Part shown: in pieces, positions 14,645 through 62,778 of the stretch
Layout of the letters: every line of letters starts with the position of its first letter
How positions within the stretch are numbered: the stretch's first letter is position 1
Program-made: the position numbers and the translations under genes
NCBI GenBank assembly: GCA_964016885.1
Contig: OZ024751.1
Span: 51,150,001 to 51,214,000, forward strand
Source: Eledone cirrhosa
Taxonomy: Eukaryota
DNA length: 64,000 nt
Direction of reading: 5' to 3'
Notes under the pieces: generated by a model
Told to the model about the DNA's origin: nothing
Databases searched by the model: none
Seen by the model: the letters and a program-made list of their open reading frames with translations, nothing else

Positions 14645-14699
14645 ACTGCTATATATATTTCGGTGACAGCCATCTTTGGCTGTGACCTCTTCAGGCAGT
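14645..14699 (-). ncRNA. Minimal type I hammerhead ribozyme motif, canonical core
   Basis: Minus strand: ACUGC | CUGAAGA | GGUCACAGCCA-AAGA-UGGCUGUCACC | GAAA | U-AUAU-A | UA^ | GCAGU. Stem I 5 bp, stem II 10 of 11 bp, short stem III with palindromic loop. Confidence 0.85.
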
Positions 14700-16044
14700 T
14701 TGAATTAGTGTGGTAGAGACGAGTACACATGTTGTTGAGGTGTATAACTTTGTCAATACTCCGATATGCCCAGTTCCTGGTTGGGTTGTTATTTCACTGA
14801 GGAACTGGCATACAACCAACATATACTCAAAATTTATATATATATATATATAAATGATGATCATGATGATATATATGTATATACATATATACACACACAT
14901 ATATATAAATATATAAATGATGATGATGATATATATATATATAATCATCATCATCATTTAATGATCATTAAATGATGATGATGATGATGAGGATGATATA
15001 TATATATATATGAAATTTATAAAAGTACATTTAGATTTAAACTAGAACCAGAAACAGAAAAAGAAAGAAAGAAGAAACTAATTAGAAAGCAACAACAACA
15101 CTACCACAGCCACCACTACCACCATCACCATCACCAACAATAAAAAAAAAAAAATCATTATATAAAAAGTATAAAATAAATACAAATATGATAGCAAAGT
15201 ATTTTAAATCATCTTCTCTAAAATAATATTCTATGTAGTATAACAAAAAAAATATTAAAATACTAAAATTTCCATATTAAAATTTTGTTTATTATATCAT
15301 ATATATATGTGTGTGTGTGTGTGTGTGTGTGTGTGTGTGTGTCTGTGTGTGTGTGTGTGTCTGTGTGTGTGTGTGTGGTGTATGTATATGTATATGTATA
15401 TATATATATGTATATATATATATATATATATATATATATATATATATATATATATATATATATATATATATATATATATATATATATATATATATATGTG
15501 TGTGTGTGTGTGGGTGAAAGTGATTTCTTAAAATGTTTTTTAATTTTTCAATATTACTTTTAAAGTTTCGTATATATATATTTTTTGTTGACATTTTTTC
15601 ATTTTTCTTTTCGGCTTTAAAACAAAACTATTTTTGTTCGAGACATCACCTTAAAATATGAAATACAGAATTGTTTAGTATGAAAATAAATTAAATTTTC
15701 TTATGTCTTTCTAAGCTTTTATTTTATTCTATATTGAACTTTACATGTATTTACTGTTTGCGATTCAGATCTGTTAATATACACTTCATATAATTATTGC
15801 TGAGTGAGTAAAGCTTCATTAGGGATATATCTTGCATCTAAAGTAGAAATTATTACTTATCTGGTGTTTTGAACACAAATTTACAAAGATTCTTACATAA
15901 AATTATGTTGAAAGTTTTTTTAAACATTTCAAAACAAACCATTTTCGTAGTGTAGAACAAAGGGGTGTTTCAAGAGGTTTGGTATCAAAAGGATTAATGA
16001 TATTTTTCCTGCTAAAGAAGGGTTAGCCTTCTGTGCCCTATTAT

Positions 16045-16270
16045 TATCATCATCGTTATCATCATTTTTATGTCTCCTTTTCATTGCTTGCATGGGTTGG
16101 ATGGCTTCTTTCAGCACAGCATCTCTACACCCATCATGTTCCTTCATCATCTCTTCTGGGAGTTTCAGCAATTTGAGATCAGCTCTCACCACCTCTGCCT
16201 TGGTCTTCCTTGGTCTACCTTTACTGCGGTTTCCTTCTATTAGGATTTCCTGGCACTTCTTCACCCAGTA
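16045..16270 (-). mobile_element. RTE-clade LINE 3' terminal fragment
   Basis: Translates as EGNRSKGRPRKTKAEVVRADLKLL..MMKEHDGCRDAV (RTE C-terminal GxRxRGRP..W..V..DL....DR..WR pattern), followed by AACCCATGCAAGC..GACATAAAAATGATGAT tail. Confidence 0.75.
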
Positions 16271-18940
16271 ATCATGGGCGTTTTGAATCAGTGTTTTATA
16301 GCCAGATTCCCTGGTACCAATCCTTTTAGGGATATAGTGTATCTATTCTTAACTGGATATACACAGATATGGTAGTTTATATACACTCTGACCCGATGTG
16401 ACCATTTATCTCACAGTAAAGTGACAAATTGGCAGAGTTATCAGAACAGTGACTAAAATGTCTCACACTAGTCATTCCAGCTCTTTATTGGAGTCAGCAT
16501 TGCCTTTCATCCTTTTGGTGTCCATAATAAAGTAGCTGTCCAGGGTGTTAAATTGTTGGAATCTTTAGAGCATCAGTCATAATGCATTATAGTATCTCTT
16601 TCAGCCTATTGTATTCCGAGTTCACCTGTGATGTGATTGGTACCAAGCTGTATTAGTCTTTGCTTTCCCTTTGGCGATGTCGATGGCATGGTGAGGGCAA
16701 ACTTGCATGTGTAGGTAACTGCTAGTCTTTCACAAAAAAATTGTTCAGAAACAGCTCAGAAATGAACATTCCAGGTTTAGTTTCATGATCTTGTGAAATA
16801 TATGGAGAACATTGATATAGGAATTCCCCAAAACAAAGTTCATAGCTGGTATATCTTTTGTTCAGAGTTGACTTGGGGCTAAACAACAACAACAACAACA
16901 TATTAAAAAATACAAGTCAAAATCTTTCAATTTTAATTTTGTTTTATTTCTCAAATAATATCAAAGGGAAATTTATACAATATTGAAGCTTTTTAACAAT
17001 GGTCATAATAATAATAATAATAATAATAATAATAATAATAATAATGATAATAATAATAATTTGATAATAATTTAATAATAATTATAATATTAATAATCAT
17101 AATAACAACAACAATAATTATAATAATAATAATATAAATACTAATAACAATAACAATAATAACCATAACCATAACAATAATAATAATTTAACCTTTTTCT
17201 GATAAATAATAATAATAATAATAATAATAATAATAATAATAATAATAATAATAATGATAATAATGATAATAATAATAATAAAAACAACAACAATAACTTC
17301 AATAATTGAAATTGATAGTAATTGAAATAATGATTTTAATAGTTTTGATGATTACTCAGATATGTATGAATCTTTGAATATATAGGGGAAGTATATAGGA
17401 GGTTGTAGCATTCAATCTTTTCTGAGAAGGGCATTAATGATGTGATCTGTATCCTGCTGAATATTTGACTTAATTTACCAATCATCATTATCATAATTAT
17501 TGATTAAATCTCTAAATCTCTGATGATGAGTTTTATGTTAAATACAATTAAAAATGTTCAGATTATTATCAGTGGAGTTGTAGTATCTGTTCAGATTGGT
17601 TAAGTTCTGAGTTTAAATCCCAATGAGGTCAACTTTGTCTTTCATCCTTCCAGGGGTTGATAAAATAAAGTATGATTATGAGACAAGTACTTGGGTCGAT
17701 ATAATCAGTTGTCTCTTTTCCTCCTCACAACCGAAGTCTTGTGCCTTTGTATGAAATCAATATTTAAAGCTTCGCTAAGTTTTCATTTCTGATTTTATTA
17801 CTGGGTATTTTATTCCTGTATATGTGTGTATATATATATATATATATATATATATATATATATATACACACACACACACATACATATACATATATATATG
17901 GACCCGTAATTCTTGATGGAGTCATAGGGGTACTTTTGTGACATTGGGCATATATTAAACCTGGTGGATTCCATCCCCTTTTCAGGTTAAGACATGACTG
18001 ATTTCTCCCAGAGAAAGAGAGGGGGAGAGAGAAAAGGGAAGAGAAAGACACAGAGGAAGAATGAAACTCACTACTGGACTGGTACTTTTCTTTTATCAAC
18101 CTGGATATGTAGAATTTACTAAAGCAGGACCATATTTCTAAACTAAATTAACCTAAAAAGGTAACGTTAGTTGTACATGCACCAATGGATTGGTGAGATG
18201 TTATGTACACATCCAGAAATATCTGGCGGCAATCAGAGATCAAATTGATTCAAATATAGCATATATGTAAATATTAAAACCTTTTTCATCTCTAAAACAT
18301 AAGATTACTAATCAGAAAGATTATAGTTGGACATCATTATCATTTTTTAAGAATGATAGATCGGCAGATTGTTAAAGTTTTGGACAAAATTGTAGTATCT
18401 GTTCTGGCTATTAATGTTCTGTTTCAAAAGCCCAGTGAGGCCAGCTTTACCTTTCATTTTTCTAGGGTCAATAAAATAAAGTACTAATGGTATTTTATTA
18501 TTACATTAACCCCAGTACTTTACCAGTGCCTTATTTTATTGATTCTAAAAGAATGAAAGGCAAAGTTGACCTCAACAGGGTTTGAATTCAGAATGTAAAG
18601 AGCTGAAACAAATACTAATTCTCTAATGATTCTTCCAATTCACCATGATGATGATGATGATGCTAATATTGATAATAAGAATGACAATAATAATAATGAT
18701 AATAATAATAATTTGAAAGTGCTCGTTCAAGGCTAGGGAAGCATCTAAATAATGGTGTAGTAGAAGGTGAAGTTTCAAGTTGGATGATTGAAGGAACCTC
18801 AACTTTGATAATGAAGGATAAAATGAAAGGTCCGTTAGTTGGAAATTACAGGCCATTTGCTTGATTGAATTTGCTTTGAAAGCTGTTGACAGGCATCTTT
18901 TCTGCAAAAGTGTCTGATCACCAGCCTCAAATGACACATG

Positions 18941-19170
18941 ATTATAATGATGGTTTCATTTATTGGCCACAAGGGCCGACATATAGGGGACAATACAGTA
19001 AATGGGGGCAGTGGGGGTTTTACACAAAAATCGAGTAAAAAATAGGAAAACAATAACAATAAACAAGAAAAATGCAACAATGAACATTCCCCAATAGGGG
19101 GGGGGGGAGGATAACCACCCAGGTTTGACTTAGGTTCCCCACCAATCCTGAACCACCCGACACATTGAGG
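18941..19170 (-). mobile_element. 5'-truncated 3' UTR of a related Tx1-like LINE
   Basis: Reverse complement shares CCCCCTATTGGGGAAT and CCCTTGTGG..AATAAA.GAAA..ATT with the 3' UTRs at 2100-2349 and 5985-6235. Confidence 0.7.
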
Positions 19171-61972: not shown

Positions 61973-62087
61973 CTTTGATCAGCAATAAATAATGGAATAA
62001 GAAAGAAAAAAACAAGAAATAAAATGAAGAAAAGGAAAAGAAATAAGTTGCTTTAAGATAAAAGAGGTTCATTTAGTAGTTATAATG

Positions 62088-62287
62088 GTTTCTTATGTAG
62101 GCACAAGGCCAGCAATTTTGGGGGAGGGGAAAGTCAATTAAATCAACCCCAGTGCATTACTGGTACTTTATTTTATCGACCCCGTAAGTTAACCTTGGCG
62201 GGATTTGAACTCAGATCATAAAGGACTGTAACTCTATGCTGCGAAGCATGGCGTCTGACCCTCTACTGATACTGCCAATCCACCGCC
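62088..62287 (-). mobile_element. SINE family A with 19-bp TSD
   Basis: TCATTTAGTAGTTATAATG at 62069-62087 and 62288-62306. Confidence 0.92.
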
Positions 62288-62589
62288 TCATTTAGTAGTT
62301 ATAATGAAGGTAAGAGAGAGGCTGTATGATGGAAACATGAGAAGGCATACTCAAACATTGCTACTGAAATGATATGGGCATCATCAGTGTAGGACACTCT
62401 CTGGCCTGCAGAATCCCAGACACAAGCCAGCTTTTGGTCACAGCAGACAGAATGGGGAAAGCTTTGCCTTGGAGTAGGGTGAGGAAGACACATTGAAATA
62501 GACATTCCTACTTGTGGGGCCCTCACCAGTGGCTGGCCAACTCTACCCTGATAGTAGCGATACCATTCAGTTATTATTATTATATATAT

Positions 62590-62778
62590 ATAGGAAAATG
62601 TATGACCTCGACGCCAGAGCTCAAGCCGTTTCGACGGCTATTTCTGGAGTCCAGAAATAGCCGTCGAAACGGCTTGAGCTCTGGCGTCGAGGTCATACAT
62701 TTTCCTATTACCCACTCTACTACCCTAAGTATTGAGTACTCTGGTGCGTTATGGTCCATCTGGTTCCTTACCACAACT
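62590..62778. mobile_element. CpG-rich element in (TA)n starting with a perfect 119-bp palindrome (62590-62708)
   Basis: 59-bp arms with a single-base loop at G62649. The unique tail shares CCTAAGTATTGAGTACT with 47327-47343. Confidence 0.88.

Follow-up and report, generated by a model that had tools for sequence, protein, structure and literature searches.

What are the short islands of sequence that lie in or beside (TA)n tracts of the Eledone cirrhosa genome, and how did most of them come to be inverted repeats? The question is raised by a window of 64,000 nucleotides (nt) on contig OZ024751.1 (positions 51,150,001-51,214,000, forward strand; assembly GCA_964016885.1), the whole stretch of DNA that was analysed, which has a GC content of 32% and is rich in TA microsatellite. 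Its islands, and the repeat families they represent, are labelled a (14645), b (28231), c (43519), d (47230), e (49125), f (54457) and g (62590). A sequence-only reading had taken them for several non-autonomous, retrozyme-type families carrying minimal hammerhead ribozymes, which insert into (TA)n and copy themselves back during integration. The analysis presented here identifies them, as far as sequence can tell, as short 3'-terminal pieces (pseudo-long terminal repeats, pseudo-LTRs or pLTRs, with or without a tail) of at least five abundant Penelope-like element (PLE) families in (TA)n. That the islands are PLE ends in (TA)n whose head-to-head pairs arose when both nicked strands of the target primed reverse transcription of the RNA is given a probability of about 0.65. 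This reading builds on the observed family membership, links to coding copies, (TA)n flanks, a one-tail rule within pairs, and the absence of a preference for either arm as the longer one.

The elements, their ribozymes and their layout are already in print, and the finding is of an ordinary kind. The PLE papers cited here jointly cover pLTR hammerheads, opposite-strand pairs, the U3-A8 pair, inverted copies, tails and TA targeting. The origin of the inverted one-tailed structure is given as unexplained in Craig 2021 (PMC8557442), and can be tested from sequence alone with young insertions that number in the tens of thousands and come from three PLE clades.

Coding relatives, abundance and (TA)n flanks

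All five countable families (a, b, e, f and g) lead to longer copies with a reverse transcriptase (RT) together with a GIY-YIG endonuclease at the C-terminus. These open reading frames (ORFs) were found in other genomic copies of the five families, not in the window copies. Because the families continue into such ORFs elsewhere in the genome, the window copies are truncated ends of coding elements, and islands a, b, e, f and g are 5'-truncated pLTR ends of autonomous PLEs. Membership among PLE ends is close to certain for these five families, and highly probable for islands c and d, which appear to be decayed relatives of such ends; no ORF link was found among 11 loci related to island c.

A whole family a element at locus L202 comprises an inverted arm, a pLTR, a tail that continues toward the ORF start, a frameshifted ORF and a second pLTR, and so holds both a direct pLTR-ORF-pLTR arrangement and an inverted pLTR. 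Its ORF carries the motifs RWK, DKT, YRDD and WYNPP, a CxCx5C linker and a GIY-YIG domain (Pfam E 7e-4) without the CCHH cysteines. The same type of ORF lies upstream of the ribozyme at four loci in family b and at L122 and L124 in family g. An ORF beside a family b end at L133 was considered as that of family b and set aside; it belongs to an f-related element. The family e RT has DKG and YLDD motifs, a long CX4CxxC linker and a CCHH endonuclease (Pfam RVT_1 E 4.8e-6, GIY-YIG E 6e-4), and a PDB search with this RT gave 0 matches. Family f holds RVT_1 (E 5.5e-4) and GIY-YIG (E 1e-3) in a single frame of 625 amino acids, with a short linker. The 3' untranslated regions are about 1-1.6 kb in families a and b; that of family e exceeds 1 kb and contains several copies of an internal repeat of about 300-400 nt (L135, approximately 2300-4400).

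The Hydra clade of endonuclease-containing (EN+) PLEs, which includes Hydra-1_Obim, is defined by the CxCx5C linker and a GIY-YIG domain without CCHH (Craig 2021). Families a, b and g match this description and share with the clade a C-terminal GIY-YIG domain, YRDD, W[FY]NPP, a hammerhead close to the 3' terminus and insertion into (TA)n. RWK and DKT, likewise Hydra-like, are both present in family a; the recovered b and g sequence excludes the N-termini. Family e resembles Neptune in its DKG motif, long CX4CxxC linker and CCHH endonuclease, and family f resembles the Nematis rows in its short CxxC-to-C spacing, the only feature by which it was assigned (Craig 2021 Fig. S2); Neptune is described by a CX2-5CxxC linker, a CCHH endonuclease and DKG, and Nematis by a reduced form of this linker together with CCHH. 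Named by these motifs, and for f and e by motif spacing, families a, b and g would be Hydra-clade, e Neptune-like and f Nematis-like. An endonuclease N-terminal to the RT, a Naiad feature, occurs in none of the five families. In the Craig 2021 supplement, three short strings taken from the ribozymes of a, b and g found no match, nor did one from e; these families thus seem to be unlisted there, and may be catalogued elsewhere.

Short patterns matched the 3.0-Gb genome exactly 3,942 times for family b, 13,570 for e, 7,209 for f and 17,578 for g, and 9,098 times at no more than one mismatch for family a; reversed control patterns gave 0 matches for each of the five families. The counts are of arms, not insertions, and are lower bounds. 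Together they come to 51,397 arms, or about one per 58 kb. The very large genomic population that had been predicted is thus present; the density from which it was predicted, about one per 10 kb, was for all families, and is higher than that counted for these five.

Flanks were examined at 125 pattern-matched loci, in which 117 copy ends could be placed and 8 could not. (TA)4 lay within 15 nt of 106 of the 117, against a background of 8.4% in the flanks and 11.4% in the window, as expected of insertion into (TA)n. PLE families often have their ends nested in, or adjacent to, those of other families (L031, L124, L136, L162 and L202), because each insertion leaves TA tracts that are targeted by the next.

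Hammerhead motifs and their predicted folds

A strict type I descriptor (CUGANGA, stem II, GAAA, paired 15.1/16.1 and 15.2/16.2, UH, stem I) found five motifs at three islands: 14694 (-), 28332 (-), 28515 (+), 54633 (-) and 54758 (+). In 40 block-wise dinucleotide shuffles of the window the mean was 0.075 motifs and the maximum one, and the hammerhead frequency is thus well above that of shuffled sequence. The descriptor, together with self-BLAST, bore out the coordinates and motifs of the sequence-only reading, and five islands (a, b, c, e and f) do carry a whole or decayed motif. Their attribution to Penelope-type elements agrees with the RT and GIY-YIG links described above. The description of the hammerheads as minimal does not extend to the family at 62590, in which stem III has 5 bp. 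An Rfam scan of the window gave no hammerhead among the matches listed (150 of 465); those listed were microsatellite-driven microRNA matches.

A type I core with stems I, II and III and an NUH site is present in window islands a, b and f and, with U3-A8, in families e and g. Relatives of island c retain CUGAAGA, a stem II of 5-6 bp and GAAA. Window island g retains no more of a hammerhead than its 3' half; island d is a decayed relative of island g. Both e arms in the window have a UUGAAAA (U3-A8) core and have lost the first pair of stem II. UUGAAAA occurred in 62 of the 62 family e motifs gathered, most of them with a pattern outside the core, and is the form proper to family e, not decay. 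The family g search pattern itself included UUGAAAA, and its 30 loci are uninformative on the fixity of the core. Across the five families identical helices are kept with different sequence; families a and b, for example, both have a stem II of 3 bp, a C.C mismatch and 6-7 bp. Within families covariation in the stems is slight, being confined to the replacement of G-C by G.U and to a small number of subfamily variants.

For window a and window f, as for the usual sequence of family e, the minimum-energy fold consists of stems I and II. The e copy in the window is predicted to misfold, and the weak stem I of family b has predicted pair probabilities below 0.1. Stem III is palindromic in a and e (self-duplexes of -3.2 and -8.3 kcal/mol, respectively), an imperfect palindrome in b and non-palindromic in f. 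The a and e hammerheads would, on these models, cut as dimers or with the help of the element's protein. Full family g copies have a stem I of 4 bp, a stem II of 9 bp, a stem III of 5 bp and a GUC site; all three helices are present in the predicted monomer fold, and only these copies are predicted to fold so. With its natural 5-bp stem III the g ribozyme is easily assayed.

The motifs resemble the minimal hammerheads of metazoan PLEs (Cervera and De la Pena 2014, PMC4209133) in being type I with a short stem I and a long stem II, in the U3-A8 variant, which was reported in Schistosoma PLEs, in the extra base before 10.1 (f and the relatives of c) and in the palindromic stem III (a and e). They differ in the 5-bp stem III of family g, with its 9-nt loop and predicted monomer fold, and in the non-palindromic stem III of family f. 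The U3-A8 core and long stem II of the g ribozyme also distinguish it from the Hydra rows of File S2 (Craig 2021).

Origin of the inverted, one-tailed pairs

Self-BLAST found clear inverted arms at 28228-28619 (99%), 49125-49422 (97%), 54457-54946 (89%) and 62590-62708 (99%) and weak ones at 47207-47306 (69%). It detected none at island c, and island a is not an inverted repeat; there a single arm is fused to a 24-nt inverted piece of tail. Most islands are inverted repeats, as had been claimed. Several unrelated families are represented, as had also been claimed; the islands show no relation to one another apart from a 17-nt match that links 47230 with 62590.

Each family has two fixed 3' ends that lie 57-93 nt apart, the interval being the tail. 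Exactly one tail was present in 121 of 128 inverted pairs. One pair had two tails, with an unrelated ORF between its arms, and six had none by probe; four of these six show a damaged or variant tail by eye, leaving 2/128 tail-less/tail-less pairs. As 60 of the 125 copies are tailed, independent choice of the tail would make only about half of the pairs one-tailed.

Arm lengths were compared in 101 one-tailed pairs whose anchors lay no more than 900 nt apart: 39 had a longer tailed arm, 34 a longer tail-less arm and 28 arms of equal length. At the junction the arms overlapped by 0 nt in 13 pairs, 1-3 nt in 37, 4-10 nt in 12 and more than 10 nt in 2, and were separated by a gap of 1-10 nt in 16 and of more than 10 nt in 21. 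The asymmetry is probably not caused by later decay, because the pairs with a longer tail-less arm include some with zero arm mismatches (window b, L162, L164, L166, L195 and L197). At eight of the 125 loci, and in window island a, the tail-less arm is joined to a piece from the tail's far end, with no sequence in common between the two. Arm divergence within and between pairs was 0.020 and 0.043 in family a, 0.025 and 0.051 in b, 0.035 and 0.063 in e, 0.041 and 0.059 in f, and 0.060 and 0.101 in g; the first value is about half of the second in four families and less so in f. Since arms are closer within pairs than between them, one source element is indicated for each pair.

In the mechanism proposed, the GIY-YIG endonuclease would nick both strands of (TA)n. 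One nicked strand would prime at the far end of the tail and the other at the tail-less end, the two fixed start points on RNA from one source element. Both cDNAs would extend toward the 5' end of the RNA, often as far as a transcription start in the pseudo-LTR, and would then be joined end to end via 0-3 nt of microhomology, with the hammerhead carried along as part of the pseudo-LTR. The templates are likely uncut RNA, because the arms pass through the predicted cleavage site. Such two-ended priming resembles the twin priming of LINE-1.

The alternative that survives best keeps the same elements and has the mirror arm made by self-priming: a single cDNA would fold back to serve as its own template, and the arms would become unequal through later deletions on one side. 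Such self-priming is the mechanism of the sequence-only reading, is close to the proposal for the inverted structure of PLEs in Arkhipova 2013 (PMC3846280), where self-priming is argued for, and is considered unlikely. Near-perfect palindromes with little spacer, the 28 pairs with equal arms, the short junction overlaps and private changes common to both arms, such as the stem II change in the window e arms, would all be accounted for by it. Snap-back of one cDNA, however, requires the tailed arm to be the longer, which is true in 39/101, and some tailed arms never reach shared sequence; simple copy-back therefore fits poorly. The 34 pairs in which the tail-less arm is the longer, some of them with identical arms, and the nine cases of a tail fragment without overlap speak against it, as does the rarity, by eye, of tail-less/tail-less pairs, which are expected from fold-back of a tail-less cDNA. 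The claim that the elements copy themselves back is in its simple form unsupported, and we infer that two-ended priming fits better.

Several points weigh against two-ended priming of PLE ends. Palindromes could lose one side after insertion and so mimic unequal arms, and similar arms are equally compatible with snap-back or gene conversion. Both cDNAs span the same stretch of RNA, for which strand displacement or two RNAs would be needed. Several of the 21 gaps of more than 10 nt reflect failed extension, so some class calls are wrong, and most pairs were picked via opposite-strand neighbours on contig C1, a few of them being compound. The Pfam scores for RT and GIY-YIG fall under the curated cut-offs, the motifs having been read directly, and islands c and d have no ORF link. 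Every long ORF seen has stops or frameshifts, and thus no currently active copy is shown. Mechanism and cleavage alike are predicted from sequence.

Two-ended priming would extend the result of Frangieh 2024 (PMC11167929), in which a Poseidon PLE protein cut and extended both strands, starting at two internal sites that bound the tail, in a reaction that did not require ribozyme cleavage. The Eledone pairs share with published inverted pLTRs the head-to-head arms, the optional one-sided tail, the two fixed 3' ends and an initiator-like motif in the pLTR (PMC3846280; Craig 2021; PMC11167929), the last noted in a rotifer pLTR (Arkhipova 2013), and with PMC4209133 the spacing of pairs 100-700 bp apart on opposite strands. 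They differ in their tails, which are not of 30-40 nt, and in arm-length statistics that favour two-ended priming over the self-priming accounts. A literature search on Penelope with twin priming and inverted found nothing on a PLE mechanism by title, with thin coverage of subscription papers.

The 5' ends of the arms cluster in every family. For 46 of the 109 arms compared in family g, with loci selected for the 5' half excluded, the end falls between -1 and +3 relative to the A of TTAGTC, an initiator-like sequence in loop II of the ribozyme; 8 of the 109 extend at least 20 nt beyond this A. Among the arms that end exactly at this A, 14/25 show G where the template has T; a copied cap behind the extra G is only suggested, and the partner arm may supply some of the Gs. 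The tailed arm of window island g starts inside loop II and therefore has no catalytic core. If TTAGTC is the transcription start, the g mRNA would be without the ribozyme core, in agreement with 3,189 genome matches to the 5' half of the ribozyme against 17,578 to the 3' half, counted at different mismatch settings. Ribozyme cleavage was rejected as the source of 5' ends, as the partner arms in a, b and f do not stop at the predicted cut. One family e arm ended near it, and the test is partial, the patterns being blind to copies cut there.

A wider proposal, which we regard as tentative and rather less probable than the reading above, is that inverted PLE insertions are the product of obligate two-ended target priming at two fixed RNA starts, and short copies that of run-off from capped transcripts started in the pLTR. 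The g start inside loop II would make the element's own mRNA coreless and only read-through RNA self-cleaving, a built-in switch. If true, this switch, with a monomer-competent U3-A8 hammerhead, gives PLE hammerheads a defined job.

Clustered 5' ends would also be found if the short units were independent non-autonomous elements, retrozyme- or SINE-like (short interspersed element), with short source loci of their own and mobilised in trans, an explanation we consider improbable. Short copies far exceed long ones (13,570 ribozyme matches against 577 to the endonuclease linker in family e, and the two ribozyme halves of family g as above), mobilisation in trans by pLTRs has been reported (PMC3846280), and a preprint derives retrozymes from PLEs (Li 2026, bioRxiv 10.64898/2026.07.22.740005). 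The non-LTR retrozymes described there are, like the Eledone units, non-coding hammerhead units from PLE pLTRs. Retrozymes are described as forming tandem arrays, however, whereas the Eledone units are dispersed, single or head-to-head, and colinear with the ends of ORF-bearing copies, with lengths from under 100 nt to several kb. No head-to-tail array or direct tandem of the short unit was found at the 125 loci; a direct repeat within 1.5 kb upstream was absent from 124 of them, the other having one partial match 1.3 kb away. Internal priming on a full-element transcript from the 5' pLTR would yield the same short products, and with all five families reaching RT and GIY-YIG ORFs, the non-autonomous or retrozyme families first proposed are unneeded. 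Miniature inverted-repeat transposable element (MITE)-like DNA transposons or chance palindromes in TA-rich DNA, which long inverted arms in TA tracts might suggest, have a negligible probability given the RT links, variable 5' truncation, one-sided tail and hammerheads far above chance, and are refuted by the full-length family a element and the ORF-linked copies of family e.

Features of the window

Table 1. Positions of PLE ends and hammerhead motifs in the window; clade names are putative and follow motifs
Feature	Position	Strand	Details
Family a (Hydra-clade PLE) pseudo-LTR arm	14592..14808	-	91% to natural copy L202; tail-less end meets AT-rich/TA sequence near 14582
Family a type I hammerhead	14645..14699	-	stem I 5 bp, CUGAAGA, stem II 3+7 bp with C.C mismatch, palindromic AUAUAUAU stem III, AUA site
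Inverted piece of distal end of family a tail	14810..14832	+	compared with L202 tail end; followed by (TA)n; no overlap with other arm
Family b (Hydra-clade PLE) arm	28141..28348	-	88-nt tail, stops at (TA)n
Family b hammerhead	28277..28339	-	CUGAUGA core, weak G.U-rich stem I
Family b tail-less arm	28349..28619	+	5' side about 150 nt longer than in tailed arm
Family b hammerhead	28508..28570	+	same sequence as minus-arm motif
Island c, old decayed inverted pair of another family	43475..43780		23 other genome matches, 70-85% identity, to both halves
Island c decayed minimal hammerhead	43616..43656	+	fails strict descriptor
Island d, decayed inverted pair akin to family g ends	47200..47390		no hammerhead core; 74-80% to family g ends, 87% to tail in L025
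Family e (Neptune-like PLE) tail-less arm	49125..49276	-	
Family e U3-A8 minimal hammerhead	49201..49236	-	palindromic ACCGGU stem III, first stem II pair broken
Family e arm	49275..49488	+	64-nt tail, stops at (TA)n
Family e U3-A8 minimal hammerhead	49311..49346	+	shares private change of other arm
Family f (Nematis-like PLE) tail-less arm	54457..54704	-	
Family f minimal hammerhead	54595..54637	-	one stem II change
Family f arm	54704..55002	+	57-nt tail, stops at (TA)n
Family f minimal hammerhead	54754..54796	+	stem I 4 bp, CUGAAGA, extra G, stem II 6 bp, non-palindromic AGAACU stem III, CUU site
Family g (Hydra-clade PLE) tail-less arm	62590..62648	-	hammerhead 3' half only
Family g arm	62648..62788	+	80-nt tail; starts at initiator-like hot spot in loop II, without catalytic core

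An exon of a sodium/calcium exchanger (Pfam Na_Ca_ex, E 3.5e-15) lies at 55725-55865 (-), 0.7 kb from the f pair, and a possible further exchanger exon without a Pfam match at 58697-59245 (-). Islands f and g are probably in introns of this gene. At least two pairs flank a host-gene exon, and long double-stranded RNA in its pre-mRNA is likely.

Other inverted structures are present in the window. A near-perfect inverted duplication of 506 bp at 13895-14400, without a hammerhead, has some 220 bp of host DNA flanking a 58-nt stretch of a common short repeat, presumably a SINE, and mirror insertions here are thus not limited to PLE sequence. Inverted pairs of common short repeats that match many genomic loci occur at 53130-53764, where they surround a TA tract, 38836-39006 and 18393-18617. 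Old inverted repeats at 46552-46900 (80%) and 63473-63633 (67%) had no match among the genomic loci compared and may be older PLE ends. Just upstream of island d, a 38-bp palindrome with perfect arms (47113-47150) adjoins a TA tract. Two overlapping fragments of an RT ORF of the long interspersed element (LINE) type are found at 330-2096 and 4774-5981 (+).

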